DNA of 64,000 bases from an uncultured archaeon (GCA_964484305.1 CAZAEI010000003.1:4672-68671); one strand, 5' to 3'. Counted from the stretch's first letter, positions 6,765-64,000 are shown. Made by a program: numbers and translations. The notes: generated from the sequence alone by a model not told the origin.

Positions 6765-6858
6765 TGTGAATATTTGCAGGGTCTTTTTATAAACCTTCAG
6801 CCACCCTGACCGGGTAACGGCCTTCAGGTTTTAATAGCACGGGTGCCAATTATATTGC

Positions 6859-8052: not shown

Positions 8053-8055
8053 AGC

Positions 8056-16790: not shown

Positions 16791-17005
16791 GTTATCCCTT
16801 CAGAACCAGCTTAAAGATATTGTGCAAAGGCTATTTATAAGCTTTATGGTTCCTTCCTCAACTAACTGAATATGAAGGCATTTTAAAATAAAAAATACAA
16901 GCAACGTCACTGAGAGCTTTATAAACCATTATTGTAACTATTAAATAGTCACAAAAATATGTGAGAGCTGAAAAGAATCATGGTTACAAAGGAGGTTTGA
17001 CTGCA

Positions 17006-18328: not shown

Positions 18329-18473
18329 AACAACTAAAAAACCTACACTTGTTCCACAACTACCGAATCAACTTTAAGTGCAGGTTATTAAGTTGATTCA
18401 GTATAAAATGACATCAGACCATAAATGGAATTTATAAATGATTAAATTTCAATATAGCTGGGGCGCTTAAGGC

Positions 18474-19664: not shown

Positions 19665-19696
19665 GGTTCATAATAAAAACATTACATATTATAAAT

Positions 19697-20836
19697 ATGT
19701 TTAATCACCACATGGGGGCTTTCCACTATTTGCCGTTCTTGAAAAAGCAGCTTAATGAAATATATATAGTTCATTCTCTTGATGCCTTCGTATTCTCTTT
19801 AATAGGTATTTTCGTTCCAATTTATTTGTTGACGTTGGGATATTCTGTCTCCCAAGTCTTAATATTCTATATAATAAAACAACTGGCCGTATGTGTTTTT
19901 TCATTCCTTGCCGGATACGTCTCCAATCATTTTGGTCTAAAGCACACCATGCTGATGAGGTTTCCTGTCGTATCAGCCTTTTTGATAATGCTTTATTCAT
20001 TGGATTCAGTTGCCTTTCCTCTGACCCTGATTGCAGTATTGGGAGGGTTTCAGACTGCTTTGTATTGGATGCCGTTGCATTCCCTCTTCTCCCGAAGTTC
20101 AGATAAGGTTCACATGGGCACTGAGGTAGGCAAATTGTATTCCTTTCCAAGGCTGGCAAGCGTTATAGCTCCTTTAATTGGCGGTTTCATAGCCATATTT
20201 TTCGGATTCAGTACCCTGTTCATTGTTGCGATGATATTTCTGGCTGTTTCGGTAATCCCTCTTTTCTATTCCTCTGAAGTCAAGCCACACGTCAATTTTC
20301 AGATTAAAAGGGGAACAATGATATTTAAGAGATATCCCAGATATTTTCTTGGCGTAGGTGTGAACCATCTGGGGGGAATTACAGAATCCGTTATCTGGCC
20401 CATCTTTGTATATCTGATTCTGGCAAACGTCTTATCCGTCGGGATGGTCGGTACCTTATTAAGTCTAGGAACAATTCTGTTTACCCTGATTTCCGGCAGA
20501 CTATCTGACATGTTTGACAGAAAGCGTATCATCAGAATCGGTGCAATGATTATGATTATGGTCTGGTTATTGAGATTCTTTGCCAGCACCGAGGCATCCT
20601 TTTATTTACTTACAGTCATGGCGGGCTTTTTTACAGTCCTGATCCTGGTTCCATTCACATCAGTAACCTACGGCCTTGCAAGGAGGGGCAATATTGACGA
20701 GTTCATAATATTCAGGGAGATGCCGGTTGCACTGGGTAGAGTATTTATCTTGTTGCTGGCTCTAATCTTTGTTAATCAATTGGGATTCACTTTTCTGTTC
20801 ACGGGCATCTCTCACCTTTTCCTAGTGCTCTTCTGA
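19697..20836 (+). CDS. MFS-type transporter (paralogue of 47901-49052)
   Basis: 379 aa, about 12 hydrophobic helices. The N-terminus aligns with the 47901-49052 product (LKKQLNEIY.../LKRELKEIY...). Confidence 0.8.
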   Translation: MFNHHMGAFHYLPFLKKQLNEIYIVHSLDAFVFSLIGIFVPIYLLTLGYSVSQVLIFYIIKQLAVCVFSFLAGYVSNHFGLKHTMLMRFPVVSAFLIMLYSLDSVAFPLTLIAVLGGFQTALYWMPLHSLFSRSSDKVHMGTEVGKLYSFPRLASVIAPLIGGFIAIFFGFSTLFIVAMIFLAVSVIPLFYSSEVKPHVNFQIKRGTMIFKRYPRYFLGVGVNHLGGITESVIWPIFVYLILANVLSVGMVGTLLSLGTILFTLISGRLSDMFDRKRIIRIGAMIMIMVWLLRFFASTEASFYLLTVMAGFFTVLILVPFTSVTYGLARRGNIDEFIIFREMPVALGRVFILLLALIFVNQLGFTFLFTGISHLFLVLF

Positions 20837-20841
20837 ATCCA

Positions 20842-22020
20842 TCACTTCTTAAACATGCCATTCAGCTTCAGGTAGATGGCGTTGGTCCAGCCAAAGCCTG
20901 GCTGGGTTGGGTATCTGTCCTGCTTGCCTACAGTGCATCTTACAACATTATACTTCTCCCAGAACTTACCCGTCTTTTCAAAAACCCTTTTGTTCATACC
21001 AAGCCATTTCATCGCTATCCTTTCAGCATCCATCTCGTAACCATATCTCAAGAGTCCCTGTATCACAATCCACTGCTGGTTTGGCCACCCGTTGGGATAG
21101 TCCCACTGCTTGAACTTCTTTGAAAGACCTTCTTTTTGCGTGTTCGCCAGGCCACCCTTGCATTCGAATTCTCTGAGGTTCCTTACCATCTTCTTTGCCA
21201 TATGCTCGGTGGTTATGCCTGCCCACATGGGATAATACCCCGCAAGTGAGTAGAATTTGCTTCTGAGCTTTCTTTTGTAGTTGTAATCAAAGAACAGGCC
21301 CCTCTTCTCGTTCCACATGAGCTTAATCATGTTCTTTTTTCTATTCCTTGTCATCCTTGCATATTTCCTTACCTTGACTGGATTCCCGAGAAGGGAATAT
21401 ATCTTCTTCAGGTCTGTCTCGTATTTGTATAGCAATGAATTGAGGTCAACCGGGAGGTAGTTAAGGCAGTTTTCCTTGTACCTCGATGTCATATCCCAGC
21501 CGGATTCGTGCTCTGCTGTCAGGTGTGTCAAGAAGTGGGAGGTATATCTTGAAAGGCCGTTGTAAACCAGGTGACCCTCCTTTGCATGATAGACCCTTGC
21601 CATCCAGTAGTCCCTGAGTTCTTCCTCAACAATCCTTGTCATCTTCCTGAGCCATACCCTGTCCTTTGTGGCTTCATAGATATCCAGAATCATTGATGTC
21701 AGAAATGGGGGCTGGGACAACCCCAGGTCATAGAACCTGTTCCTCGCAGGAATCACGCCGAACCTCATATAAAGGTAGGCGAAGTTCTCAACCATTCCCT
21801 TTGCAAGCCCTATTTTGCCAGATTCAATCAGTCCAAGGTTCTGGAAATAACTATCCCAGTACCAGATATCGTTTTTGTATCTTGTATGATTTGGTGAAAT
21901 AAACGGTTTCGGCAGGCCTATGCGGATGCCTGCATCCTTGGGTTGATAGCAAAGTGTCCTTTTCCAGTATCTTTTGATATAACTCAGTTCATTCATTACT
22001 ATAACATTCTTTCCCATCAT
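20842..22020 (-). CDS. trehalase (GH37 family)
   Basis: 392 aa; WYWDSYF, ESGWDMTSR, QWDYPNGWPNQQ, GFGWTN are hallmark GH37 trehalase motifs. Confidence 0.85.
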   Translation of the reverse strand: MMGKNVIVMNELSYIKRYWKRTLCYQPKDAGIRIGLPKPFISPNHTRYKNDIWYWDSYFQNLGLIESGKIGLAKGMVENFAYLYMRFGVIPARNRFYDLGLSQPPFLTSMILDIYEATKDRVWLRKMTRIVEEELRDYWMARVYHAKEGHLVYNGLSRYTSHFLTHLTAEHESGWDMTSRYKENCLNYLPVDLNSLLYKYETDLKKIYSLLGNPVKVRKYARMTRNRKKNMIKLMWNEKRGLFFDYNYKRKLRSKFYSLAGYYPMWAGITTEHMAKKMVRNLREFECKGGLANTQKEGLSKKFKQWDYPNGWPNQQWIVIQGLLRYGYEMDAERIAMKWLGMNKRVFEKTGKFWEKYNVVRCTVGKQDRYPTQPGFGWTNAIYLKLNGMFKK

Positions 22021-39993: not shown

Positions 39994-40456
39994 TAAATCC
40001 CATGGGAAGAGAATAATCAGGATAGAAACACTGAGGGAGATGGTGAAGCCCCGCCACGGCTACAGGATAACCACCGTGGACCCGGTCATAGTCAGGTCAG
40101 GAAGGGTTCTTCTCCAGAAGCGCTCCTTTGGCCTCTTCAAGGGTTTTTGGGTCCTTCCCGGCGGTAGGGTGGATGCAGGCGAGGACACCTGGAGTGCCTG
40201 TACCAGGGAGGCCAGGGAAGAGACCGGCCTCAGGGTGAGCATAGTAAGGATGATGGGCTTCTATGATGACCCCGACAGGGACCCTGAGAAGCACGCTGTG
40301 AGCATGGCCTTCCTCTGCAGGCCCCTGGGCGGAAGGCTCAGGAAATCCAGTGAGGCCACTGAGATTAAATGGTTCCCCCTGGACAGACCTCCTAGGAAGC
40401 TCGGCTTCGACCACGCCAGAATCATATCCGATGCAAAAAGGCTGTTGGGAAGGTAA
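39983..40456 (+). CDS. NUDIX hydrolase
   Basis: 157 aa; Nudix box GGRVDAGEDTWSACTREAREETGL. Confidence 0.85.
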   Translation: MFPDKSHGKRIIRIETLREMVKPRHGYRITTVDPVIVRSGRVLLQKRSFGLFKGFWVLPGGRVDAGEDTWSACTREAREETGLRVSIVRMMGFYDDPDRDPEKHAVSMAFLCRPLGGRLRKSSEATEIKWFPLDRPPRKLGFDHARIISDAKRLLGR

Positions 40457-40985
40457 GCTTGTTCTTAACCCACAGAAGCCAGACAATCCATATACCAAGG
40501 ACCAGGGCCACGAGGCCTGCCTGGAAGAGCCAGTCATGTATAACAAGGGCCGCATCCGTCCCCCACGCCCCTTGGGCCGCGACCACCCCGGTGACCCTGG
40601 CCAGGTTTCCCAGCCATATCAGGGGCATCCCCAGGGCAAGGCCCCAGGCCCTCCTCCTCAAGGATATCCCGGGGACCGCGAGCACCAGGGCGAAGAGGAA
40701 GAGCATGCTCTTCCAGCCCGTGCAGTCGGGGATTATGAAGAACCCGAAGCCGTCGGCAGTCAGGCCTGTCCCCTCCTGGACCACCCCATATCCGGCTGCC
40801 TGGAGGAGCCAGGCAGACTGGGAGGCCACAGCAAGCTGGAGTGGATACAGGTCAAGGCCCAGCCATATCACAAGGTAGAGCGGAAGGGCCAGCACACATA
40901 CCCTTACAAGGAACTCGAGCATGCGCATCATCCTGGCCTGCCTGGGCGTCAGCCTGGCCCCCAGGAAGGAAACCCCCGGCTTCAT
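40422..40985 (-). CDS. small archaeosortase/exosortase-family transpeptidase
   Basis: 187 aa, multi-TM; catalytic-Cys motif FIIPDCTGWKSM, conserved Arg (LGNLARV) and His (VIHDWLF). Confidence 0.75.
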   Translation of the reverse strand: MKPGVSFLGARLTPRQARMMRMLEFLVRVCVLALPLYLVIWLGLDLYPLQLAVASQSAWLLQAAGYGVVQEGTGLTADGFGFFIIPDCTGWKSMLFLFALVLAVPGISLRRRAWGLALGMPLIWLGNLARVTGVVAAQGAWGTDAALVIHDWLFQAGLVALVLGIWIVWLLWVKNKLTFPTAFLHRI

Positions 40986-42965: not shown

Positions 42966-43814
42966 ATGGTTATGTCAACAGAAACAGGTTCAAAAGCAGT
43001 AATCTTTGAAAAGCGGAAGATTTATCCTACTGGAACGACTGTTGGCAGGGCCAGGCCCATGGAGTTACAGGGAGAATACGGACCAGAAATAACACAATTT
43101 AATGAAGTATACAGCATTCTTGCAACCCTTGAAGACACAGCAACGCTTGGTGATATGGCAAAACTGTTTGAACACTATCTGCAGTCAGAGCTTGGCGTGC
43201 TTGACTTGAAAAATGAACAGGACACCCTTCTCAAATACCTCTTTGCTGAAACAGGAAAGGGAAACGTCTGTGCCAATGCTGCTAATTACAGTTTCAATGA
43301 CAGTGGTCTAAAGAAAATCCACGAAAGCGACAGGCGCGTTTTATGGGTTGTGCGGCCTGAGTATCTTGATCATAAAAACATTAAGGGAGGAGAAGAATAC
43401 CCAGAATGCGTTCCCATAACAGGCTGGATTGCATTCCCAGAAGACACAGGAAAGGGGCTCTTTCGAAGAACCAAAGACGGTGAGGTGTTGGGAATACCTG
43501 AATTCACTGTTCCCACCAAGGAGGAAGCCAAAAGGACCTTCATTGACAGGGGATTTTCAGAAAAATTTGCAGAGAATGCCGTTTCTAAATGGTACAGTAG
43601 AGGTGAGGGTGATGGAGTATCCGCTGTGGTTCGCTATTCCGGCGGCAGGAACGGTCAGTTCGTTGCGAATGCCGATGAGCATCCGTCGGACAGGAGCTCG
43701 AGTTTCGGTCGGTTCCCTTCCAGTAGGTCGCCGAGCGGAGCGAGGCACGCCGGTAAGAATGAAATTGCCGACCAGTTGGTAGCTCTGGCTGCTCAGTTGA
43801 GATCAAAAGGATAA
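42966..43814 (+). CDS. DGR variable (target) protein with C-terminal C-type-lectin/FGE-like variable region
   Basis: 282 aa. The C-terminus ...SAVVRYSGGRNGQFVANADEHPSDRSSSFGRFPSS... is encoded by VR. No signal peptide or TM segment is evident. Confidence 0.85.
   Translation: MVMSTETGSKAVIFEKRKIYPTGTTVGRARPMELQGEYGPEITQFNEVYSILATLEDTATLGDMAKLFEHYLQSELGVLDLKNEQDTLLKYLFAETGKGNVCANAANYSFNDSGLKKIHESDRRVLWVVRPEYLDHKNIKGGEEYPECVPITGWIAFPEDTGKGLFRRTKDGEVLGIPEFTVPTKEEAKRTFIDRGFSEKFAENAVSKWYSRGEGDGVSAVVRYSGGRNGQFVANADEHPSDRSSSFGRFPSSRSPSGARHAGKNEIADQLVALAAQLRSKG
43620..43733 (+). repeat. DGR variable repeat (VR)
   Basis: Aligns to TR (offset 470, then 494). All 13 mismatches in about 107 aligned nt fall at TR adenines (43630, 43641, 43642, 43645, 43662, 43663, 43667, 43674, 43689, 43696, 43702, 43704, 43723). 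Homology decays after 43726 in an IMH-like way. Confidence 0.9.
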
Positions 43815-44089
43815 ATGTCACCACATCTAATTCTATTCATCTCTCTGGTAACAGGGAGATCACCAGAAAGCTGGGCATCAGTGTCGATATGTCCATTGGA
43901 CATGCCGAGTATATGCGTGAACTACATGCCTGGTTATAGTGCTATGAGGCGTTAGTTTCATGGCCATAAAATACAGCGGCGATACCGATAATATGAGGTA
44001 AAGCCGCAGTGTGCATCCGAAACAATACTGCTTATAAGAAGGTGAGCAGCCACACTACAAGATGCATTTAGTAACACAGGCTACAAGGG

Positions 44090-44227
44090 TCCGCTGTGGA
44101 TCGCTATTCCAACGACAGGAACGGTCAGTTCAATGCAAATGCCAATGAGCATCCGTCGAACAGGAAATCTCTTGCTTGTAGAGACCTGAACTCGAATATC
44201 GGTCGGTTCCCTTCCAATAGTCCGCTG
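44090..44227 (+). repeat. DGR template repeat (TR), containing a 24-nt TR-only insert
   Basis: Adenine-rich AAY codons in the VR frame (aac gac agg aac ... aat gca aat gcc aat). Lies immediately upstream of avd. Confidence 0.9.
44167..44190 (+). other. putative bulge-helix-bulge intron within the DGR template RNA (24 nt)
   Basis: Outer helix tcga(44156-59)/tcga(44192-95). Central helix cagg(44161-64)/cctg(44185-88). Bulges aaa(44165-67) and aac(44189-91). Inner helix tctct(44168-72)/agaga(44180-84) with a 7-nt loop. Excision makes TR co-linear with VR. Confidence 0.6.
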
Positions 44228-44260
44228 CTTTCTGGGTCATGTTTCCCTAGGTGTTCACAA

Positions 44261-44614
44261 ATGTCCTATACCCTTCTGTTCCAAAAAACATATGACCTTG
44301 TAAAGTGGATATACCCAACTGTCAACAAATTTCCTCGGAAACAGAGACTTACTCTCTCACAGAGAATTGAGGTAACCACAATCAGAATACTCGAATTGGT
44401 TATTGATCTCAGTGACCGAGATACTGCAGTTAACAGAAAGAAAATCCTCCATGAACTTCATAAACTCCAGATTCTCCTGCGTCTGTGCAAGGATCTTTCT
44501 TACCTGAGCTTCAAGCGATACGCATATGTGAGTTTCCTGATTACCGAAATAATTCAGATATTGGACAAGTGGGGGGGGGGGTCTCGTGGAGGTCTGCAGA
44601 AATTTGTTTCCTAA
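44261..44614 (+). CDS. avd: DGR accessory variability determinant (Avd; four-helix-bundle, 23S rRNA-IVS protein family)
   Basis: 117 aa from ATG 44261: MSYTLLFQKTYDLVKWIYPTVNKFPRKQRLTLSQRIE.... The longer track ORF (from 44096) merely reads through TR. Confidence 0.8.
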   Translation: MSYTLLFQKTYDLVKWIYPTVNKFPRKQRLTLSQRIEVTTIRILELVIDLSDRDTAVNRKKILHELHKLQILLRLCKDLSYLSFKRYAYVSFLITEIIQILDKWGGGSRGGLQKFVS

Positions 44615-45653
44615 GCTTTGCTCATTCAGGAATCTTGAGCTTGCATACAGAAAAGCAAGAAGAAACAAGCGATGCAAACCAGCAGTCCAGAAATTTGAAA
44701 TGCATCTGGAGCAGAACATTCTCCAGCTCAAACATGAGCTTGAAACAGGAGCATACACTCCCCGTCCACTCAGACAATTTGTTATCCGAGATACAAAGAC
44801 AAGGGTGATTTCCGCTTCCCGTTTCAGGGACAGGGTAGTTCATCACGCTCTGTGTAATACCATCCAGCCAATCCTTGAGAAATCATTCATTCATGATTCC
44901 TGCGCAAACCAGATAGGGAAAGGGGCGAGCAGAGCATTAGAACGGTTTGATACATTCAAGAGAAGGGTCTCGGAAAACGGCAGACTTGTGAACAAACCAA
45001 TCACCACTAGCATAGTGATTGGATACGTATTGAAAGCAGATATCAGGCATTATTTTGATACTGTTGATCACGAGGTGTTGCTTACCATCATCCAAAAGAA
45101 AGTCAAGGACAAGCGGGTAATGGGATTGATAAAGAAAATTCTGGACAATCACTACATTCCAACCCCTGGAAAAGGTATGCCTCTCGGGAATCTCACTAGC
45201 CAGTTCTTTGCAAATGTATATCTGAATGAACTTGATTATTTTGTGAAGCATATATTGAAAGCAAGACACTACATCAGATATGTTGATGATTTTGTTGTGC
45301 TGCACAAATCACGAGAGTGTTTGGAGCAACATAAAAGGCAGATTGAAGACTTTTTACAAACACTCAAACTTGAATTGCATCCAGAAAAGTCCAAGATCTA
45401 TTTGCTCTGCAAAGGAACGTCATTTCTTGGTTTTCGTGTGTTCTATCATCATAAACTTGTCAAGAAAAACAATCTGCGAAGAATGAGAAAGAGGGTTTCG
45501 GAATTTCGGTCAGTGTATGGTAAGAATGAAGAGTTTGATCAAGAAATATTGAGAAGTTTTACCGGTTGGTGCGCTTATGCTATGCAGGGAGATACGTACA
45601 AGTTTCGAAAAAGAATGATGGAAGAACTCACAGGAGGCGAACATGCCCTTTAA
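44586..45653 (+). CDS. DGR-type reverse transcriptase
   Basis: 355 aa (GTG start); PLGNLTSQFFANVYLNELD (the DGR-specific SQ motif) and YVDDFVV catalytic box. Confidence 0.9.
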   Translation: MEVCRNLFPKLCSFRNLELAYRKARRNKRCKPAVQKFEMHLEQNILQLKHELETGAYTPRPLRQFVIRDTKTRVISASRFRDRVVHHALCNTIQPILEKSFIHDSCANQIGKGASRALERFDTFKRRVSENGRLVNKPITTSIVIGYVLKADIRHYFDTVDHEVLLTIIQKKVKDKRVMGLIKKILDNHYIPTPGKGMPLGNLTSQFFANVYLNELDYFVKHILKARHYIRYVDDFVVLHKSRECLEQHKRQIEDFLQTLKLELHPEKSKIYLLCKGTSFLGFRVFYHHKLVKKNNLRRMRKRVSEFRSVYGKNEEFDQEILRSFTGWCAYAMQGDTYKFRKRMMEELTGGEHAL

Positions 45654-50220: not shown

Positions 50221-51531
50221 TCAGGATGTCACGAACCCGTCCCTGCCCGTCTCCATCTCCACTGGTATCTTTATGGGGTTCTCATGGCCTTCCTGGCCCC
50301 CGGCCCCCTCTGGCTTTTCTTCCCGGCCGGGCCCGGCCGCCCCGCCTTGGTCAGGAGCGGCCTGTATCTCTGGAAGCCCCGCGGCCCTCCTAAGTTCCCC
50401 GGCCCTGTCTGTCCGCTCCCAGGTGAAGTCAGGGTCATTCCGGCCGAAGTGGCCGTAGGCAGCTGTCTTTCTGAAGATGGGCTTCCTCAAATCCAGGTAC
50501 CTGATTATCTCTGCAGGCCTGAGGTCGAACTGCTGCTCCACAATCTCCCTGAGCTTCTCATCAGGGACCTTCCCGGTCCTGAAGGTATTCACCATCAGGG
50601 AGACCGGCTTCGCTACCCCGATGGCATAGGCTATCTGGATTTCGCACCTGTCCGCAAGCCCCGCTGCCACGATGTTCTTGGCTATGTGCCTGGCCATGTA
50701 GGAGGCTGACCTGTCCACCTTGCTTGGGTCCTTTCCTGAGAAGGCGCCGCCCCCGTGGGAGCCGTGGCCCCCGTAGGTATCGACTATGATTTTCCTTCCC
50801 GTGAGGCCGGAGTCTCCCGGCGGCCCGCCTATCACGAACCTTCCGGTGGGGTTGATGTGGAAGGTCGTCTTCTCGTCTGTCCAGTCCCCACACACCGGTC
50901 TTATTATCTCCTCCATTATCCCCTTTCTGATATCCTCATCTGCTATGTCCGGGGAATGCTGCGCGGCTATCACGACAGTCTCCACCCTCAGGGGGGTCCC
51001 GTTGTCATACTCGACAGTCACCTGGGACTTGCCGTCAGGCCTCAGCCACGGAAGGGTTCCACTCTTCCTGGCCTCTGTGAGCTTCATGGCAAGCTTGTGG
51101 GCGAGTGTGATGGGAAGCGGCATGTATTCAGGGGTTTCATTGCTGGCGTAGCCGAACATGAGGCCCTGGTCCCCTGCTCCCTGCTCCTTATGGAGGCCTT
51201 CCCCTTCTGATACCCCCTGGGAGATGTCAGGGCTCTGCTCGTGGAGGGAGACCAAGACCGCGCACTGGTCAGCATTAAAGCAGTACTCAGGCTTGTCGTA
51301 ACCGACATCCCTGACCGTGTCCCTTACTACTGATTGGACATCTATGTATCCCTTGGTTGTGACCTCCCCCGCAATGACTATCAGTCCTGTGGTTGTCAGG
51401 GTCTCCACAGCCACCCTTGAATAGGGATCTTGTTTTATCAGTTCGTCCAGAACAGCATCCGATATCTGGTCGGCGATTTTATCGGGATGTCCAGGGGTTA
51501 CTGATTCTGAAGTAAACAAATACGTTGCCAT
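50221..51531 (-). CDS. metK: S-adenosylmethionine synthetase, bacterial/eukaryal MetK type, with low-complexity C-terminal extension
   Basis: [63 protein letters not shown]. The ATG at 51531 lies 7 nt after AGGAGG. Confidence 0.95.
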
Positions 51532-51533
51532 AT

Positions 51534-52499
51534 TCAACCTCCTCCCTTAGCTTCTAAAAAGATTTTATATTGTTGGTATTTTCTCTGTAAAAACAGATGA
51601 GCGTCTTTGTATATCCAGTCCGCTAGTCCCTTACCTCTACTACATGAATACTGAACTATGAATGTATTATTGCTTATTTTTCGGATTCTAGAAACAACAC
51701 CAAGATTTTCTCTAATTTTTTCTACCATCTTCTTCAAGAACTCTGGTGAACCAGAAGAAACCGTTATTTCAAAATAAGGGCTTCTTTTTCTTTCAACATA
51801 TCTTACATTTCCATCACCATCAATAATACCCCTAATAAAATGTCGTAGATAGTCTGTTGGTATATCCGGGAATTTTACTATAAGAGATTTTCGGGGAATA
51901 ACTCCTAGCTCCATAAGTCTCAAACATATTTTCTTATTATTTACTATCAATCTGTTCGATTTTGTCTTTTCAGCATAAAGTAAAGGCTTTGTGCTTAGAA
52001 GTAGTTTTCTTATTCTTACCAGATGAATTCTATCTTTTTCTGATGCTGTTATTGTAAGAGATTGGTAACCTTTTGAAGGATTCCAAGCCACATTCCCATC
52101 AGCAAATATATAACCCAGAATATATGCTGAATCTTCGTTCCATTCATTAAAAAAAGATTCGTTAACGGTGTGTTTTTTGTGGCGAAACCCCAGCTCTGCA
52201 CTCCATTTGTTTATCGTTGTCTTCCCCACACCCAATCTTCTTGCTATCTCCCTCTGTGAGACTTTTCCTAAATTCGATTCAATAAAGGAGATCATTGACT
52301 GTTTTTTCTTTGGATCGATTTTTGTGCCCATAGATAGATTTATGGTTTTATCGCATAAATATGTCGGGTGACCTTCTATATATGGCTCTGAATCATATAA
52401 GCACAATTCCATGCTAATCATCTTAATCTTTCCAACCCAGCGAGACTGGATTAAGAAAATCTTATAAATCCACCCATTTATATAAGTTTCAATATACAA
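51534..52499 (-). CDS. free-standing double-motif LAGLIDADG homing endonuclease with N-terminal HTH
   Basis: 321 aa; [10 protein letters not shown] and [11 protein letters not shown] motifs; [22 protein letters not shown]. Strongly AT-rich. Its last codons (GGA GGA GGT TGA) supply the metK Shine-Dalgarno. Confidence 0.85.
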
Positions 52500-56463: not shown

Positions 56464-56511
56464 GGCTCTGGGACTGCAGTTCTTTTTATACCTTTCTGGA
56501 GAATCAGGGAA

Positions 56512-56528
56512 ATATAACAGTGTTATAT
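56512..56528. promoter_or_regulatory. 17-bp perfect palindrome ATATAACA-G-TGTTATAT upstream of the SLT operon (putative operator)
   Basis: Identical 19-mer atataacagtgttatatca recurs at 60885-60903. About 55 nt upstream of ATG 56583, followed by an AT-rich TATA-like stretch. Confidence 0.5.
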
Positions 56529-56582
56529 CACTCCCTGTCCGTCCAAGCAACAATATAATATATCAAAACCAATTATAAGAAT

Positions 56583-57158
56583 ATGAAAGGCTTTGAGACA
56601 ATTGGGCAAGGAATGAAGGTCATTCTTGCTGTATTTGTGGGTGTTGTTACTTTCTTAATAGTCACCCAAACATGGGCTTCCCTTGGTCCTTCAGGATCTG
56701 ATGGGCCTGCCACAGGATTTGATTTCCTGATAAACCATGCAGCCCTCAGGTACGGCGTAGAGGCAACCCTCATAAAAGCCGTGATAAAGCAGGAGAGCAA
56801 CTTCGACCCTGCAGAAAAATCCGATGCAGGTGCCAAGGGCCTCATGCAACTCATGCCCAGTACAGCAGAGGGCCTCGGGAAACCCACCACACCAGAGGGA
56901 AAATATTGCAACCTCGACATAACCGACCCCTTCGACCCGGAACAGAACATAAACGGGGGGACCTGCTACCTGTCATATTTATTGGACAGATACGATAATA
57001 ATAAAGAGCTGGCCCTGGCCGCATACAACGCAGGACCAACAAGGGTCGATGCCTGCAAATGCGTTCCAAACATACCGGAAACCCAGCAGTATGTCAGACT
57101 CGTGACAAATTACTACGATGAATACAAGGGTCAGGGCGGCTTGACGGCGGTTGGATGA
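56583..57158 (+). CDS. membrane-anchored lytic transglycosylase (SLT/GH23 domain)
   Basis: 191 aa; IKQESNFDP (catalytic Glu), GLMQLMP, AAYNAGP. N-terminus MKGFETIGQGMKVILAVFVGVVTFLIV. Confidence 0.9.
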   Translation: MKGFETIGQGMKVILAVFVGVVTFLIVTQTWASLGPSGSDGPATGFDFLINHAALRYGVEATLIKAVIKQESNFDPAEKSDAGAKGLMQLMPSTAEGLGKPTTPEGKYCNLDITDPFDPEQNINGGTCYLSYLLDRYDNNKELALAAYNAGPTRVDACKCVPNIPETQQYVRLVTNYYDEYKGQGGLTAVG

Positions 57159-57340
57159 CCTTGGACAAAAATGTAACTGCAATGATGGGCCAGATAACAA
57201 TAGAGTTCAGCATATGGTTTTTTGTGAAGATTGTGCTTTTCCTTCTGCTGTTCCTGATACTTTTCCTTTTCGTTCCATCCACCCTGCATGCAGCTGCTGA
57301 GTGGATTGGAGGACTCTTTGGGGGCGGGGGCTCCCCGTAG
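57155..57340 (+). CDS. small hydrophobic protein, prepilin-like N-terminus
   Basis: 61 aa; MMG|QITIEFSIWFFVKIVLFLLLFLILFLFV; ATGA start/stop overlap with the SLT gene. Confidence 0.55.
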   Translation: MTLDKNVTAMMGQITIEFSIWFFVKIVLFLLLFLILFLFVPSTLHAAAEWIGGLFGGGGSP

Positions 57341-57354
57341 CGAGGCGCTTAGTT

Positions 57355-60195
57355 ATGAAAAAACCACAAAGAAGAAAGGGAATGAAGGGCTTTGAAATAG
57401 GCATCAACATGATGGTCCTCACAGTCTTTGCTTTCATCGGCATAGGCCTTGCTTTTGTGGCATTCATTGCCACCACCGAATACTTCCCCGAACTCCAGGA
57501 TTGGCTGCTCAACTTATTCAACGAAACCCTCACCCCGGATATGAAAGATAACTATGAGATTACCAAGGTCTCTATGCAGGCCCTGGTGTGCGCCATAAAC
57601 ACCGTAGCGACAGGGGAGGAATACACAGCAGACGGCTGCTCTAAATTCTATACCAGCACTCCCCCAAAAACCAGTGATGAGCCCGGATCGGTTTTTCCTA
57701 ATATCCCTGATTCTCCTGTTGTACCAGAATATGGGGCTGATACCCCGCCACAATATGATCCAGGTGTAGGCAACATGGTCTCCAAGGACTACAGTGACTT
57801 CATGACAGGCCTCGCAACCAGAGATACACAAAAAAAACAAAAAACCGTGTTTACATGCAATCAAGGATACACTGAATGTACATTATACAACTTCAGGCTT
57901 CCCCAGGAATTTGGTGGCGTAAAAGGCACAGCCGAAGAGTGGGTTAAAGGTTGTGGAGATCCGGACTTCCTTATGTACTGGCAGGAATTCCCAGAGGGTG
58001 AAGACCAATCATGGAACAGCTTCCGAACCTGGGCAGAAAACGTATATGATATAATCTTTGCGTGGTGGGGCGCGGGCAAAGTGTTTAGAATCGGTAAGGG
58101 CACTGCAAAGATCACGTTCCAATACACTGTAAAGAAGGGGATATATTCTGCTAAGGATGTTTATGCTAGAATAGTCTATAGGGATCCGCTCGAATATTTC
58201 GTTAAACATACACTAAATCAGAAATCGAGTGCAACACTAAAACAAGAACTGGGAAAAATCGGAGAAGAAATATTATCTAAAAAGCTAATGGGTAAAGAGA
58301 TAGCCACTCTCGCAAAGCGCGGTATTGCAATAACTCCATGGACGGTAGCGGCTGCTCTTATTGACAGCATCAATGCCAAATACAAGCAGTATACCAACTC
58401 AATTGTGTTGAAGATTCCCTTTAATGACCCAGAGAACAAATCACTCCAGCTTAACGGCGAACCCGTGTTTCTAAAGAACAAGAAAACGTCATTCTATATG
58501 GTCTCTCCCTGTGATGCAAACCTCAAGGTAGAGAGGGTTGTTGCAGAGTGCAACGCCAAAGAAACTAATAGTGGCAAAATCACTAGTTTTGCATACGACC
58601 TGACATCCGGTTCAATGAGATGCTATGAGCCGGATTTTGAAGATTACAAGGAGATTCCGGCTTCTGAAATTGAGTGCAGGAAAGACAAAAATATAGCAGA
58701 ATACTTCCCTGGAGAGGATCCCACGATTCCAAGTATAATATCAGGTATTGAGGGAAAGGATGAGCTAAGGATATCAAATCTTGCCGAATCAAAGGACGTA
58801 CTAAACATAAGGGACCCAATCCACGGTGTTACCTTCATTCTCGAGAAGAAAAGAGTTACAATTGAAGAGCCAACCGAAATAGGGTTTATTGAAAATGAAA
58901 TTGATGCTTGGGAAATAACACGTATAACCTTTGAGAACACTGACGGATCAGAAAAGACATTCAATGTAGTTGACGGAAAAACAACAAACCCCGAATTCAT
59001 CGACCTCGGTTACAGCGATCCACCGGAATTGGGAAAATACATATTCAACTACATTGACCCAGAAAGTGGTCTAATCAAAATAGAAATAAAACCAGACAAT
59101 TTCAATATAGAGTTCGATAGCTCAAAGAGCGACATTTCAGGCATCACAAGGGAGCGTGGCAAAAATCTTCAATGTACCTGTGAATACACAGGCCGATTTA
59201 CCGATCACAAAGCAGTAGGGTTAACAGCAGACCAGATTATCTCTGAATGTGATGATTATGTCAGATCACATTATCTTGGCAGTTATAAAGGAGCCAGCGA
59301 CCTCATGTTTTACGACTGCAATGAGGTGGGAACACCCGAAACCCCTGATGGAAATGTTAATGTAGAGAGATGTGAGTGTGCGTTTAAGATGGGTTCTTCC
59401 ACAGAAAAATATTATGTCTATGGAAAGGATGAAGCAGACGCTACTGAAAAATGTCAGGACGATTTCGCATCCTTCCAGAATACAAAAAACAAGCCAAGCG
59501 AGCTAACGATATCAAACTGCCAGCCAATCCAAGGAGATTTCGAAGATGTTGAAAACGATTGTCCTCAATGCGGGGAATACAAGAAGATTTTAGAGAATAT
59601 CAAATTGATTAAGTTTGAGGAAAGGGTTGAAAAGATTGAAACTGATGTTGGAGATAAAAATCTTGAATATAATTCACTTATCATTGTTCGTGATGACTAC
59701 AGTGTTGTATTCACTGACAAGGACAGCAAGGTTAGAGAAACAATAGAAGAAATGGAAAAAAGAGAAGCAGACGGGATTGCCGAGACAATAGGAATAGATA
59801 AAAAGGCATGGTATGAGATTTTTTGGTATTCGTTTCCTGACCAGGTACTTCTGGAGGACATGGATTTTGATGGCAAGATAGACATTGTCAGCACAAAGCT
59901 GGACTGCAAGATACCTGGCGTGACCGTGGAACTGGTGGAAAGGAACAGCCTTGGAGATGAACCCAACTTCTGCTTTGCTCCAGGAAGCAAGATAAGGACT
60001 GCCATAAGATGGGTCCCTGAGGCAGGCATTCTGCTTGGAGGTGTTGCAGGCCTTCTAGGCGGGCCGTTAGCCGGAGTGAGTGTCCCAGGCGGTATGGTGG
60101 TTGGACAGAGGGTTGGCGCAGCAATCTTCACGGCATATGTGGTGGTTGAGAAATTCACAGGAAGCGCGGACATATGGCCCGGAAAGGATACCTGA
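57355..60195 (+). CDS. 946-aa surface protein with prepilin-like N-terminus, duplicated Cys motif and Gly-zipper hydrophobic C-terminus
   Basis: MKKPQRRKGMKG|FEIGINMMVLTVFAFIGIGLAFVAF. C-terminal AGILLGGVAGLLGGPLAGVSVPGGMVVGQRVGAAIF. No catalytic motif recognised. ATG at 57355 follows the stop of the previous ORF. Confidence 0.8.
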   Translation: MKKPQRRKGMKGFEIGINMMVLTVFAFIGIGLAFVAFIATTEYFPELQDWLLNLFNETLTPDMKDNYEITKVSMQALVCAINTVATGEEYTADGCSKFYTSTPPKTSDEPGSVFPNIPDSPVVPEYGADTPPQYDPGVGNMVSKDYSDFMTGLATRDTQKKQKTVFTCNQGYTECTLYNFRLPQEFGGVKGTAEEWVKGCGDPDFLMYWQEFPEGEDQSWNSFRTWAENVYDIIFAWWGAGKVFRIGKGTAKITFQYTVKKGIYSAKDVYARIVYRDPLEYFVKHTLNQKSSATLKQELGKIGEEILSKKLMGKEIATLAKRGIAITPWTVAAALIDSINAKYKQYTNSIVLKIPFNDPENKSLQLNGEPVFLKNKKTSFYMVSPCDANLKVERVVAECNAKETNSGKITSFAYDLTSGSMRCYEPDFEDYKEIPASEIECRKDKNIAEYFPGEDPTIPSIISGIEGKDELRISNLAESKDVLNIRDPIHGVTFILEKKRVTIEEPTEIGFIENEIDAWEITRITFENTDGSEKTFNVVDGKTTNPEFIDLGYSDPPELGKYIFNYIDPESGLIKIEIKPDNFNIEFDSSKSDISGITRERGKNLQCTCEYTGRFTDHKAVGLTADQIISECDDYVRSHYLGSYKGASDLMFYDCNEVGTPETPDGNVNVERCECAFKMGSSTEKYYVYGKDEADATEKCQDDFASFQNTKNKPSELTISNCQPIQGDFEDVENDCPQCGEYKKILENIKLIKFEERVEKIETDVGDKNLEYNSLIIVRDDYSVVFTDKDSKVRETIEEMEKREADGIAETIGIDKKAWYEIFWYSFPDQVLLEDMDFDGKIDIVSTKLDCKIPGVTVELVERNSLGDEPNFCFAPGSKIRTAIRWVPEAGILLGGVAGLLGGPLAGVSVPGGMVVGQRVGAAIFTAYVVVEKFTGSADIWPGKDT

Positions 60196-60208
60196 ATCGC
60201 ATCCTATT

Positions 60209-60820
60209 CTAAGTACCAGGTCCTAAGGAGTTCACAACATATTTAGCTGGCTTACTTAGAGTCCTCTGATTCTTCGGAACCTCAAATATTGAGAATACTA
60301 TGGAAAGACCATTCTCATAAAAAACTTTATAACCCTGTCTCCAACGACCTCCGGTTTCAATGGGTTCAATCTCTGTTACTCTCACCCCCTCAAACCCTCT
60401 AAGGTAATCCTTGTAACCTTCTACATTCCCTTCCATGTAGACATCTCTCTCACCTGACTCAAGGGCTGCGGCAAAGGACTCCATGAAAGCATCATGACTG
60501 GACATATCAAGGGCATGTTTCTTGGGAGTAGTTGCCCCCTCGATTTCTTTTGTTGGGTATGCTGTCTTAGGAAGCTCTAGTGATGCTCTGGGCATTTCTT
60601 TTTCAGACAACTGCAGGGTTACGGGCGCCGGCTCCCTTACTACATTTACTTGGGTCTCGTCCACATCACCGCCCATGTATTTCGAGCCAAGCCATCCCAA
60701 AAGAGCAACGCCTGCGGCCACAGGAACCCCTATCCCTACTATCCGTTTTATCCGCCTTTGCCCCTTCCAGTTGATTGGGGTTTTGTAAAGCTCATCTGCA
60801 GTAGTTGTGCTGTTTGCCAT
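60209..60820 (-). CDS. single-pass membrane protein, hypothetical
   Basis: 203 aa; basic stretch KGQRRIKR followed by TM IVGIGVPVAAGVALLGWLG. It is the only minus-strand gene in the cluster. Confidence 0.6.
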   Translation of the reverse strand: MANSTTTADELYKTPINWKGQRRIKRIVGIGVPVAAGVALLGWLGSKYMGGDVDETQVNVVREPAPVTLQLSEKEMPRASLELPKTAYPTKEIEGATTPKKHALDMSSHDAFMESFAAALESGERDVYMEGNVEGYKDYLRGFEGVRVTEIEPIETGGRWRQGYKVFYENGLSIVFSIFEVPKNQRTLSKPAKYVVNSLGPGT

Positions 60821-60884
60821 ACAAACACCTCTTGTGAGTAGTTAATTCGACCATTTATAAAGGTTTTGGTGTGCAATTGTCGAT

Positions 60885-60901
60885 ATATAACAGTGTTATA
60901 T
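60885..60901. promoter_or_regulatory. second copy of the 17-bp palindrome ATATAACA-G-TGTTATAT (putative operator in the divergent intergenic region)
   Basis: Lies between the minus-strand gene start (60820) and the small-protein gene start (60981). Confidence 0.5.
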
Positions 60902-60980
60902 CAAGCCCCGTGGCGGCCATCCCTCAATTTCAACCGACCGAGGACAAACGATTAAATAAACCCCCAGACAATATATAACC

Positions 60981-61127
60981 ATGGAAATCACAATAAGGAC
61001 GATGCTAATTGTGGTTGTCGCTCTGATTGTTATCCTCGTCGCTCTGACGGTTGTGCTCAACCTCAGCGGGGGATCAAACAACGCAATAACCGGCCTCTTT
61101 GACTGGATAAAGAGCATGATGGGTTAG
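60981..61127 (+). CDS. 48-aa hydrophobic protein (Flp/pilin-like?)
   Basis: MEITIRTMLIVVVALIVILVALTVVLNLSGGSNNAITGLFDWIKSMMG. Below the ORF-track cut-off; first gene after the palindrome. Confidence 0.45.
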   Translation: MEITIRTMLIVVVALIVILVALTVVLNLSGGSNNAITGLFDWIKSMMG

Positions 61128-61201
61128 CACAGGTTAGCTTCCCGGCAAACAATAATTCTATACGCGGCTTGAATATAAACATCCTCCTTGTATAATAAAG
61201 T

Positions 61202-61876
61202 ATGAACATGAAATGCAAGGGAGCGACAAACACAGCACTTATAATCATAGGGAGCATAGTCTTTCTCCTCTTTGTGCTCGGCATCTTTATCTACAGTATC
61301 TGGCCCTGGATTTATTATGGACCGTTCAGCCCCTGCTACGCATCTGCTTACTCCAGCGTCAGGACCCTGGCAGGCTTCGACCTTCTCAGGGACCCCCAGA
61401 CCATTGCACTGGGAAAATGCGTCAGCGCGCTCTATCTTGTAAATGGAAATGAGCTGGACGAAATCTCAGAGAAGATAGGCAAAAACTTCAAAAAGGAGCT
61501 GGACTGCGATGAAGGGGGAAAGAGCTATGTCATAGCAGTCCCCATCATCGAGGGCGGGGAGTGGACATGGAACATCTTCAAGTGGCCAAAAGAGATGCTC
61601 AATGGGTTAAAGCAGCGATATGTCCAAAAGGTCTGGCCGGGGGCCATCTGCAGGATTCTCAGCGAAGAAAGGAAATTCGCCTACACCGCATATTTCGAGG
61701 GCGACAATACATACTGTGTTGACATAACCAAGGACATGCATGCCTCCACCTACTCTATAGACTGTTGCAAAGGCACCTGCAAAGAATGTGGGGCCAACCC
61801 CAACAATCCAGGAATGTTCTACGACGAGGAGGACACCAAGGGCATATGGGATAGGTGCGAGGGAGAGATTTCATGA
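61202..61876 (+). CDS. prepilin-like N-terminus protein, Cys-rich
   Basis: 224 aa; MNMKCKG|ATNTALIIIGSIVFLLFVLGIFIY; C-terminal CCKGTCKECG. Confidence 0.65.
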   Translation: MNMKCKGATNTALIIIGSIVFLLFVLGIFIYSIWPWIYYGPFSPCYASAYSSVRTLAGFDLLRDPQTIALGKCVSALYLVNGNELDEISEKIGKNFKKELDCDEGGKSYVIAVPIIEGGEWTWNIFKWPKEMLNGLKQRYVQKVWPGAICRILSEERKFAYTAYFEGDNTYCVDITKDMHASTYSIDCCKGTCKECGANPNNPGMFYDEEDTKGIWDRCEGEIS

Positions 61877-61889
61877 GGAGAGGGATATC

Positions 61890-62282
61890 ATGAGGGGCGA
61901 TGTGCCCCTGACGGTCCAGGTAATCTTTGCAGGACTCCTTGTAATGGTGGTTCTGTACTTCGTGTGGCAGGATGTGATGGTGCCTTCTGTAAGGAGCTAT
62001 GGAAACGAGCACGCCCACTTGACTGCCCAGGCAATTGCAACTGCTGTCAATTCACTCTCCAGGGAGGAGCAGGGAACCTTCTACAGGGAACTGGGCCTTG
62101 CCTGGGACATTGGTGTATTTCACAAGGATGATGATGCCTACGTATCCGTATCCCACGGAGAATTCAAGAGCGGTGACATAATCATCCTTTATGATATTGA
62201 CGATTTCACAGCAAGCGATATCAGCAGCATTTATGTTGTCAAGGAGCTGGGCAAGAAGGCAAGGCTAACGGAGAAGATATAA
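61890..62282 (+). CDS. prepilin-like N-terminus protein
   Basis: 130 aa; MRG|DVPLTVQVIFAGLLVMVVLYFVW. Confidence 0.6.
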   Translation: MRGDVPLTVQVIFAGLLVMVVLYFVWQDVMVPSVRSYGNEHAHLTAQAIATAVNSLSREEQGTFYRELGLAWDIGVFHKDDDAYVSVSHGEFKSGDIIILYDIDDFTASDISSIYVVKELGKKARLTEKI

Positions 62283-62746
62283 TGGGAGAGTACCAGCTGA
62301 TATACACGGCCATAGCGGCTATTGTATTCGTGACAGCCATAATAGGCGGGAGATTCTTCATAGTAAGCAACTTTGTCCAGGCGGACATCGAGTCCCAGAC
62401 AACCACGAGGGAACTCAATGCCATGTCCCTTTCATATAATATTCTGGACTGCCTCAAACAGGATGGAGACTCTGTCCAGGCGGGATTCCTTGATGGCAAC
62501 ACAGGCAAGAATATCTGCGAGCTCTGCGGGATATGCAGCCTGATTTCAGAAGCCATGGTTACAGACCTGGAAGCATCAGAAAGGGAATGGGAATTCAAAT
62601 ATTCTGCTGTATCCAAGCTCCCCCAGACTCTCAGTGACAAGCTGCTCGTGTGGAGAGATGACAGAAACAAGAAATCATACTCAGTCTATCTTGACATAGA
62701 CTACGGAGAAGAATCTCATATGGGGATGCTTGATGTAAATGTCTAG
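62282..62746 (+). CDS. prepilin-like N-terminus protein
   Basis: 154 aa; MG|EYQLIYTAIAAIVFVTAIIGG; TAATG overlap with the upstream gene. Confidence 0.6.
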   Translation: MGEYQLIYTAIAAIVFVTAIIGGRFFIVSNFVQADIESQTTTRELNAMSLSYNILDCLKQDGDSVQAGFLDGNTGKNICELCGICSLISEAMVTDLEASEREWEFKYSAVSKLPQTLSDKLLVWRDDRNKKSYSVYLDIDYGEESHMGMLDVNV

Positions 62747-63755
62747 GAAGATGAAGGGTGGGGAACTAACGGTATTCTTTATCATTGCAGGAGCAGCAGC
62801 CCTTGTCGGGCTTTTTATAATACTGAACATGATTCATACGAATTCAGTTCTCCAGGTAAAGAAGACAATAACACTCTCCACTGACCTGAGCGACCAGGGG
62901 ACGGCTGCCCTGGGCCTTCTGAACAGGGAACATCAGGGAAAGAAGTACATAACTGTTTTGGGAGAATCAGTTGCAGAAAACTATGCTTCACAACCCCAGG
63001 ATGCCTACAATTCCCTCAAGGCCACACTCAAGGAGCTAGAGAAGGGTTTCAGCTTTAAATTCCAGGAGAACCCCGACCTCAATACAGGGGAGCCCCAGAA
63101 ATCCGCGACATATGGGGAATGCGGTCACACAGAATCAGACCTTGGCATAAAGCTGACCTGGCCTTCTGAAACCGAGAGGGTCACATCTGGCTTCGGCTAC
63201 AGGAACACCCCGAGGCCCTGCTACTGCCACAGCGGCCTGGACATAGCCAGCGGGCAAGGAAAAGGCGATGAGGCCAGGGCTGCATACGACGGAACGGTCA
63301 TCTTCCTTTACGACAACTGCAAGGAATCCCCCAACTGCTTCCTAGAACCGGACAATAGTAACTGCGGGTGCGGCAGCGGTTATGGAAACAGAATCACATT
63401 GAAACACATTTCCACGAACGGCATGGAGTTCTACACCCACTACTGCCACCTCAGTGAAATCAATGTAGAGAACAGGCAGGAAGTCAGGGCCGGCCAGGTC
63501 ATTGCAAAGACAGGCAACACAGGCCGCTCAGAGGCAATCCACCTACACTTTGAGCTGTCCACAGCAGAAAAACCAACAAAGGATACCAATGCAATCAATC
63601 CCTGCCCGTATTTTGATAACCCTCCTGACAAATGCCAGCAGGTCGAGACAGAGAGTTGTGATGTGACAGCAGGGGCCAACACATTCAATGTTGAAATACC
63701 CCTTCCCGGTGCTGTAACAGGTAAGCTGAAGGGAAAGGTTGTGATGGAAAAATGA
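62739..63755 (+). CDS. M23 (LytM/lysostaphin-type) metallopeptidase with prepilin-like N-terminus
   Basis: 338 aa; MSRKMKG|GELTVFFIIAGAAALVGLFIIL. M23 motifs HSGLDIA (HxxxD) and AIHLHFE (HxH), with a Cys-rich insert between them. Confidence 0.9.
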   Translation: MSRKMKGGELTVFFIIAGAAALVGLFIILNMIHTNSVLQVKKTITLSTDLSDQGTAALGLLNREHQGKKYITVLGESVAENYASQPQDAYNSLKATLKELEKGFSFKFQENPDLNTGEPQKSATYGECGHTESDLGIKLTWPSETERVTSGFGYRNTPRPCYCHSGLDIASGQGKGDEARAAYDGTVIFLYDNCKESPNCFLEPDNSNCGCGSGYGNRITLKHISTNGMEFYTHYCHLSEINVENRQEVRAGQVIAKTGNTGRSEAIHLHFELSTAEKPTKDTNAINPCPYFDNPPDKCQQVETESCDVTAGANTFNVEIPLPGAVTGKLKGKVVMEK

Positions 63756-64000
63756 CAAAAAAAAGAAAGGGAATAGCTGACATAATGATTCTTATGGGAA
63801 TGATAATAGGGATTGTGTTAATCTTCTTCGATTTCACCCCATTCTGGGCCGAGGGCGATACCTACAGGGTTGTCCTCCATACGCACATGTACGGCATGAG
63901 CAATGCCCTGGATGGCGCCGAACTCTACGTTTCCACATCCCTGGACTATTCAGTCTACCAGGCAATCTATGACGCCCTTAAAGGTTTCAACAGCGAGACC
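63752..64000 (+). CDS. prepilin-like N-terminus protein, partial (runs off window)
   Basis: MTKKRKG|IADIMILMGMIIGIVLIFF...; ATGA overlap with the M23 gene. Confidence 0.55.
   Translation, partial: MTKKRKGIADIMILMGMIIGIVLIFFDFTPFWAEGDTYRVVLHTHMYGMSNALDGAELYVSTSLDYSVYQAIYDALKGFNSET

Follow-up and report, generated by a model that had tools for sequence, protein, structure and literature searches.

At the 3' end of a 64,000-nucleotide stretch of DNA from an uncultured archaeon (GCA_964484305.1 CAZAEI010000003.1:4672-68671; "the window" below means this whole stretch), two murein hydrolases, a GH23/SLT lytic transglycosylase (SLT) and an M23 endopeptidase, share a gene cluster with families of small proteins that begin like type IV prepilins. 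The best reading of this cluster, which we hold at roughly an even chance, is that it encodes a multi-subunit surface assembly of type IV pilin-like proteins, either a filament or a tip complex, on which the hydrolases are displayed. Its parts would be five carrier families, 2-3 tiny hydrophobic subunits, a Cys-rich protein of ~950 aa and a bitopic membrane protein. Murein hydrolases in DPANN archaea and modular pilins in bacteria were known separately. Their combination in an archaeon is new, and the literature searched held no report of a conserved archaeal cluster with SLT and M23 domains grafted on prepilin-like carriers.

The proposed assembly would work as follows. The cluster proteins would enter the membrane via Sec, a class III signal peptidase would cut after a very short leader (often M-[KR]-G), and the ATPase and platform of a type IV filament, encoded elsewhere, would build a short filament or tip complex from the proteins, joined by their N-terminal helices. 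This would bring a cutter of glycan strands and a cutter of cross-links onto the bacterial sacculus, and a small, nutrient-dependent archaeon could thereby attach to, breach or feed on bacteria. The most specific version gives this clade of Aenigmatarchaeota a type IV filament or pseudopilus with enzymatic tip subunits, which would serve as a contact-dependent drill through bacterial peptidoglycan; it is a tentative proposal that we consider rather doubtful in that full form.

Murein hydrolases on small carriers

The cluster recurs in ten further loci, from diverged relatives whose cluster proteins are often just 20-45% identical. The same gene set is carried by the contigs of large-protein homologues and by nine metagenome loci recovered through the 324-aa family; loci are named L007 and so on where they must be told apart. 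The GH23/SLT and M23 domains recognized in the earlier note hold up against curated profiles. The SLT protein (56583-57158) matches Pfam PF01464 at 2.4e-31, with flagellar and Slt70-type transglycosylases as its NCBIfam matches, and the M23 protein (62739-63755) matches PF01551 at 1.3e-19. No other product of the window cluster has a family in Pfam or NCBIfam. The catalytic motifs of the two enzymes are intact: ES, GLMQ and AYNAG in the SLT, kept in L007, L010, L098 and P0053, and the zinc ligands HxxxD (CHSGLD) and HxH (HLH) in the M23 domain, kept in five orthologues. As these motifs are conserved among orthologues that are just 25-35% identical, the alignments place the catalytic residues under purifying selection across deep divergence; by their sequences both proteins are genuine enzymes and look active. 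The SLT shares 43-44% identity with the transglycosylase domain of SPbeta YomI, and the closest phage records for M23 are actinophage endolysins and tape-measure proteins. Together with the conserved catalytic residues, these likenesses indicate genuine murein chemistry.

The genes and promoter elements of the cluster are listed here, with an arrow at the putative leader cleavage site:

56583-57158, plus strand: SLT lytic transglycosylase, 191 aa, with an MKG-FETIG leader (MKG↓FETIG), one hydrophobic helix, a Gly/Ser/Pro linker and the SLT (GH23) domain.
57155-57340, plus strand: 61-aa hydrophobic protein, N-terminus MMG↓QITIEF, Gly-rich C-terminus; candidate small filament subunit.
57355-60195, plus strand: 946-aa Cys-rich surface protein, KG and a helix at the N-terminus, hydrophobic Gly-rich C-terminal segment; candidate adhesin.
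60209-60820, minus strand: 203-aa bitopic membrane protein, predicted to have a cytoplasmic N-terminus, one transmembrane (TM) helix and a ~150-aa external domain; divergent from the second unit.
60981-61127, plus strand: 48-aa protein MEITIRTML..., one hydrophobic helix and a short amphipathic helix, without a Gly leader.
61202-61876, plus strand: 224-aa carrier family, KG↓ATNTALIII, with conserved cysteines; orthologues in 8 loci, no Pfam family.
61890-62282, plus strand: 130-aa carrier, MRG↓DVPLTVQVIF, predicted pilin-like architecture; stand-alone in the window.
62282-62746, plus strand: 154-aa carrier family, MG↓EYQLIYTAI, with a conserved C-terminal H-x-G-x-L motif; orthologues in 8 loci.
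62739-63755, plus strand: M23 protein, 338 aa, with a KG↓GELTVFFII leader and helix, a ~125-aa carrier module, the inserted M23 domain and a conserved last strand (IPLPGA).
63752-64000, plus strand: 5' part of the 324-aa carrier family gene, KG↓IADIMILMG, cut by the window end; full length at L001 11014-11988.
56512..56528, no strand: palindrome ATATAACAGTGTTATAT, copy 1, upstream of the first transcription unit; candidate operator.
60885..60901, no strand: palindrome ATATAACAGTGTTATAT, copy 2, in the divergent intergenic region, adjoining the TATA-like box TTTATAAA.

The relation of the enzymes to the carriers differs from locus to locus. In L007, L010, L098 and L105 the SLT domain is fused C-terminally to the 130-aa carrier family, and a Pfam SLT domain is present in 6 of the 57 clusters of that family recovered from 1.84 billion representatives. 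In the window this carrier stands alone, and the orthologous SLT domain, 53% identical to the one fused to the carrier in L105, sits on its own MKG and helix anchor at the head of the cluster. The M23 domain lies inside the 125-140-aa carrier, directly before its conserved last strand, [IV]P[LV]PGA; in L007, L100 and L101 the same carrier retains the strand and has no M23. Both hydrolases are missing from L100 and L101, and one of the two from L007, L097 and L099, while the carriers persist. Because the SLT fusion and the M23 insertion vary among loci in this way, the comparison identifies the hydrolases as optional, exchangeable cargo grafted onto conserved carrier families. Carrier-SLT fusion and M23 insertion each place a functional domain and a carrier in one polypeptide; the SLT of the window has a helix-only anchor.

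Two further observations concern these grafts. The SLT (56583-56610) and the large protein (57382-57410) share the N-terminus MKGFE(T)IG, which suggests that the 5' end of one gene was duplicated as the SLT domain left its carrier for the head of the cluster. In L105 the homologue of the 324-aa carrier (6454-8235) has 593 aa, with a C-terminal extension that gives faint fn3 and Pur_ac_phosph_N matches; as a graft on a cluster carrier, the extension would represent a third type of module.

Leaders and fold of the carriers

The seven N-termini of class III (type IV prepilin) pattern that were noticed at first are all found at the genes named. Across the loci, 37 of 53 cluster open reading frames (ORFs) have [KR][GA] immediately before their first hydrophobic helix, compared with 1 of 13 flanking ORFs with an N-terminal TM helix (Fisher p = 6e-5, the cluster ORFs being orthologues and hence not independent). 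Within the 130-aa family (57 clusters in all), the motif [KR][GAS] occurs in 37/48 aligned sequences, 23 of these 37 with a 3-residue leader, and the consensus after the leader is [DAV]-V-S-[EL]-x-I-Q-V. Most carriers have very short leaders, often just M-[KR]-G, and the Sulfolobus peptidase PibD accepts leaders as short as this. By these alignments, the prepilin-like N-termini are no coincidence but are conserved in several families, and the cluster proteins are probably, by a modest measure, processed class III substrates.

The 130-aa carrier offers the most direct view of a fold. Its AlphaFold2 model (48-sequence alignment; pLDDT 95.7, pTM 0.79) has, in the secondary-structure output, an uninterrupted 51-residue helix (7-57) followed by five strand segments of a beta-sheet. 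In secondary-structure terms, the carrier is predicted to have the "lollipop" architecture of pilins. The best match of its profile among PDB sequences is the P. furiosus archaellin 5o4u, a weak one (E = 0.09) that covers the N-terminal helix only. The 324-aa family, found in nine metagenome loci, is the most conserved (42% identity to L007); its profile gave chance-level matches only against PDB sequences.

Several results weigh against a pilin-based, bacteria-directed assembly. Carriers and small subunits matched no pilin, archaellin or class III model in Pfam and NCBIfam (E <= 0.1-10). Foldseek with the 130-aa model against the PDB gave a best E of 0.14 and TM-scores of at most 0.28, with no pilin, pseudopilin or archaellin among the top 50 matches listed, and no significant match in BFVD. 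Profile-profile comparison with hhalign among the carrier families detected no homology beyond the N-terminus, and the structural modelling covered only one of the five carriers, that of 130 aa. Judged by eye on the N-termini, most leaders fail the strict FlaFind-type pattern, and the 48-aa subunit lacks a Gly leader altogether. The eight loci with mapped gene content have no assembly ATPase, platform or prepilin peptidase within ~10 kb, nor is one present elsewhere in the annotated parts of the window; beyond position 64000, on L001, a 29.7-kb contig of the same locus, the 324-aa gene is not followed by PilB/FlaI, PilC/FlaJ or prepilin peptidase genes. As to hosts, Li et al. argued against bacterial and for archaeal hosts of Aenigmarchaeota (PMC8407114), and every cultivated DPANN archaeon has an archaeal host (PMC8407114, PMC11329633).

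The distance from assembly genes has precedent, for archaeal pilin genes commonly lie apart from the ATPase operon (PMC4858521), and FlaI/FlaJ homologues are reported in most Aenigmarchaeota MAGs (metagenome-assembled genomes; PMC8407114). Membership of the carriers in the pilin superfamily is not established, because two defining tests, a curated profile and a solved fold, both came out negative. The class III pattern proposed in the earlier note is supported by the leader statistics and by one pilin-like model, and finds no curated pilin family or solved pilin fold behind it. Likewise, display on a pilus- or bindosome-like assembly remains the best reading, with enzymes and leaders conserved, and lacks a pilin profile or fold and assembly genes nearby.

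The same data would suit a membrane-tethered complex under or within the surface layer (S-layer), in which [KR]G and the helix are uncleaved signal anchors and no type IV filament is formed. The SLT and M23 domains would then stay near the membrane and act only on material pressed to the cell, or on murein fragments as food. We regard this as a lesser but serious possibility. It would account for the missing family and fold matches and for the absence of assembly genes nearby, and positive residues before the TM helix are expected for any anchor with a cytoplasmic N-terminus. Moreover, the SLT of the window consists of helix and flexible linker without a pilin head, and the large protein seems anchored at both ends. 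However, an anchor does not require Gly/Ala at -1, yet the residue is conserved within and across unrelated families. In the 130-aa model the 51-residue helix is uninterrupted and the beta-strands follow directly, with no linker past its TM part (secondary-structure output). Five small carriers of graded size together with tiny subunits also look more like a minor-pilin set than like anchored enzymes.

Layout, host and inheritance of the cluster

The cluster was at first taken for a single operon of nine genes. Instead, 56583-64000 holds ten genes, nine on the plus and one on the minus strand, in at least two transcription units, which are separated by a ~1 kb stretch with the minus-strand gene and the second promoter region (160-base intergenic). 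Overlooked at first were the 203-aa minus-strand gene (60209-60820), the 48-aa gene (60981-61127) and the SLT leader MKG↓FETIG. Tight coupling was correctly described, with ATGA overlaps at 57155 and 63752 and TAATG at 62280. All-against-all BLAST and family alignments yield one family each for the large protein and the bitopic minus-strand protein, 2-3 tiny hydrophobic proteins (45-60 aa) and five carrier families of ~200-240, 130-170, 130-155, 125-140 and 310-370 aa, always in the same order. On L001 the cluster ends ~730 bases beyond the window, after the 324-aa gene, and is followed by a doubtful 87-aa ORF, an unrelated 348-aa/DUF6036 pair, Rpp14, GatA, an M20 peptidase and GatB. The pair (L001 12293-13838), a 348-aa protein without a Pfam match and a 169-aa DUF6036 protein, lies between cluster and Rpp14, a site occupied by an Alba gene in L007 and other relatives.

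The two units appear to be regulated together. The palindrome ATATAACAGTGTTATAT, with the core layout ATATAAC-NN-TGTTATAT, has exactly two copies in 64 kb (56512 and 60885), one before each unit, and none of 100 shuffles reaches this count. In L007, with cluster proteins 25-42% identical, the palindrome is found at the same two promoter regions within longer conserved stretches, and ~60 bases around the second copy are nearly identical between the window and L007. The same palindrome before both units, kept in L007, indicates a shared operator; it points to co-regulation of the units from this candidate element. The near-identical promoter-proximal stretches are 56464-56582 and 60821-60980 of the window and 9823-10000 and 13708-13849 of L007, with CAACAATATAATATAT..AACCAATTAT and CGAC.ATTTATAAAGGTTTTGGTGTGCAAT as examples. 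L007 has two palindrome copies upstream of its first unit.

The proteins other than carriers and enzymes are harder to place. For the 946-aa protein, 5.8e9 proteins yielded 4 non-self homologues only, Pfam has no family, and a profile scan of genome contigs with its alignment returned nothing. It would have 937 aa if translation starts at MKG↓FEIG (family range 720-1050 aa); K11/G12 are invariant, and the homologues read LKG↓QTWQVEE. The AlphaFold2 model (5-sequence alignment, pLDDT 38) is poor except for residues 600-730, and the Foldseek matches it gave were to ribosomal proteins only and are meaningless. An exosortase/archaeosortase gene of the EpsH family (187 aa, 40422-40985, minus strand) prompted the idea that the protein is a sortase substrate; this was rejected, as its C-terminus lacks, on inspection, the order of motif, helix and basic tail. 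The 203-aa minus-strand protein has no Pfam or NCBIfam match; its counterparts in L007 (240 aa) and L010 (215 aa) share its position and orientation. Orthologues of the 48-aa protein begin ME/QF[ST][IVL][RK] in L007, L010, L099, L101 and L105, and its gene has no in-frame start further upstream. For the 61-aa protein, candidate positional counterparts with a hydrophobic core and a Gly-rich C-terminus were recognized by eye in L007 (57 aa, MKG↓Q) and L010; the all-versus-all BLAST did not join them. Pfam searches of the small subunits at E <= 10 gave nothing relevant.

That the host is an archaeon, as first read, is borne out by aCPSF1, aIF5B, FtsZ, G1PDH and GGGPS in the window. The aCPSF1 is 90% identical to that of a Candidatus Aenigmatarchaeota MAG and 69-81% identical to those of other MAGs, several labelled Aenigmatarchaeota; further Aenigmatarchaeota MAGs give 81% and 72-74%, versus at most 56% for Nanohalarchaeota and Woesearchaeota. 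Because these identities favour Aenigmatarchaeota MAGs, the host is placed by its aCPSF1 among the Aenigmatarchaeota, and hence in DPANN.

The cluster occupies the same chromosomal site wherever its flanks were recovered. The full frame of G1PDH, GGGPS (PcrB), cluster, Alba, Rpp14 and GatA is present in L007, L097, L100 and L101; L098, L099 and L105 show the downstream Alba/Rpp14 side only, and L010 neither flank. In the distant loci the cluster proteins are ~20-30% identical, and GC content ranges from 0.37 to 0.52. Because the site is the same despite such strong protein divergence, synteny marks the cluster as old, vertically inherited and belonging to the core chromosome of the clade. A recent genomic island, an idea prompted by the fall in GC to 0.41 inside the window cluster, was rejected in view of the conserved synteny, as was a provirus or conjugative element, for which there are neither hallmark genes nor a match among the viral contigs searched.

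The earlier note had also allowed for a horizontally acquired module, either conjugative and similar to a type IV secretion system (T4SS) or viral, that breaches cell walls. Gram-positive conjugation systems also pair an SLT with a peptidase (the VirB1/CwlT/TcpG pattern), and the resemblance of the SLT to SPbeta YomI and the GC dip would also suit such an origin. However, neither the window nor the eight related loci contain VirB4/VirD4-type ATPases, a relaxase, an integrase, a capsid gene or a mobile-element backbone, and the non-enzymatic genes have no homologues outside related metagenomic loci of this lineage. With the fixed chromosomal position, vertical inheritance and the failure of the viral contigs to match, an acquired module of this kind is very improbable, and the alternative was set aside.

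Target and comparison with known systems

Murein hydrolases imply a substrate. The bacterial sacculus would be the most economical one, whether for attachment, breaching or feeding. Peptidoglycan had been called the only known substrate of both enzymes, which is slightly too strong for GH23, a family that includes a chitinase and so has non-murein activities. Instead of acting on bacteria, the hydrolases might then remodel a wall polymer that belongs to the archaeon or to an archaeal host, in the course of division, growth or docking, with a murein-like polymer, pseudomurein, chitin-like glycans or S-layer glycans as candidates. A cluster that is core and syntenic resembles a housekeeping envelope function, and the archaeal hosts of cultivated DPANN, cited above, fit this account. 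However, the lytic transglycosylase mechanism requires MurNAc-type beta-1,4 linkages, and the closest relatives of the enzymes are phage and bacterial enzymes that breach walls. The hydrolase modules are dispensable within the clade, for carriers persist in the loci, named above, that lack one or both; this speaks against a housekeeping function on the wall of the cell itself. In addition, the literature searched gave no report of murein or pseudomurein synthesis in DPANN. We consider a role on the archaeal wall improbable.

Finding murein hydrolases in an archaeon was initially presented as surprising. They are indeed present, and the surprise is smaller because the host belongs to DPANN, a group with reports of SLT-domain proteins from 2013-2015 onwards (PMC8204110, PMC9723730, PMC10936187); some peptidoglycan hydrolases of archaea kill bacteria, as shown in Halogranum (PMC12352652). 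Archaea, and DPANN above all, thus have secreted GH23 and M23 enzymes thought to act on bacterial walls, among them the SLT proteins of Woesearchaeota and Pacearchaeota (fam00969; PMC8204110, PMC9723730). In contrast to the proteins of the present cluster, the DPANN and other archaeal hydrolases are giant (up to 3000 aa) or stand-alone proteins secreted by Sec or Tat, often with peptidoglycan-binding domains. The enzymes described here are small, have no binding domain, begin with prepilin-like leaders and belong to a syntenic carrier cluster of Aenigmatarchaeota; at 191-350 aa and in this taxon, the SLT proteins of the cluster fall outside the size and taxon limits of fam00969 (PMC8204110).

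Modular type IV pilins, exemplified by PilB and PilC of Streptococcus sanguinis, are described in the main text of a survey as widespread in bacteria (PMC8179133). As outlined there, a small pilin module, made up of a class III leader, a long N-terminal helix and a beta-sheet, carries a grafted functional domain, the grafts vary among relatives, and the genes stand in tandem with other minor pilins, all of which is paralleled here. Unlike these, the present system has an archaeal host and GH23/M23 grafts, of which the survey text, its supplementary dataset aside, contains none (PMC8179133). Furthermore, M23 is inserted inside its carrier and not appended to it, neither IPR012902-type nor archaeal pilin profiles match the carriers, and we infer filament assembly from the genes.

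A second comparison is with the archaeal extracellular proteins that bear a prepilin-type leader (2007, cited in PMC4858521). As summarized in that citing article, they too have functional cargo and genes unlinked to an assembly ATPase, and they are solute-binding proteins or proteases of free-living archaea (PMC4858521). The present cluster differs in that its cargo is murein hydrolases and that it is a dedicated, conserved multi-gene cluster of a DPANN archaeon.

Gene order invites a third comparison. Minor-pilin or pseudopilin sets with a tip adhesin are found in type II secretion (GspH-I-J-K) and in type IV pili (FimU-PilVWXE with PilY1). As in those sets, the order of the genes is conserved, and five pilin-like genes, translationally coupled and graded in size (~125-325 aa), lie in tandem beside a large non-enzymatic surface protein; the likeness concerns gene size and order only. 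Unlike those sets, the present one has no detectable sequence or fold homology to them and no adjacent ATPase, platform or secretin.

The exploitation of bacteria by DPANN is an open question, for which the cluster offers a concrete, testable handle; the presence and absence of the hydrolases across Aenigmatarchaeota can be compared with co-occurring bacteria. If the carriers are true type IV pilins, the "modular pilin" principle reaches Archaea and enzymatic cargo, and a mechanism for cross-domain attachment or predation would be at hand. If they are not, the cluster would still encode a previously undescribed, lineage-specific surface complex. An enzymatic tip drill, if real, would be the first case of an archaeal type IV filament armed with enzymes, and would provide genetic evidence that bacteria, and not archaea, serve some DPANN as hosts or prey.

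Three groups of genes elsewhere in the window deserve mention. At 42966-45653 on the plus strand, a 282-aa ORF without a family, a bAvd accessory protein and an RVT_1 reverse transcriptase form a module of low GC content (0.44) that looks like a diversity-generating retroelement. On the minus strand, 50221-52499 holds a MetK of bacterial type (TIGR01034, 9e-179) in this archaeon; an ORF of 321 aa overlaps its start and looks, with its LAGLIDADG_3 and HTH domains, like a homing endonuclease, and the MetK of L007 is without this ORF. Finally, a sugar-handling group at 16961-22020 (GDE_C/GH100-like protein, GT4 glycosyltransferase, MFS transporter and trehalase-like GH) has low GC content and adjoins FtsZ.

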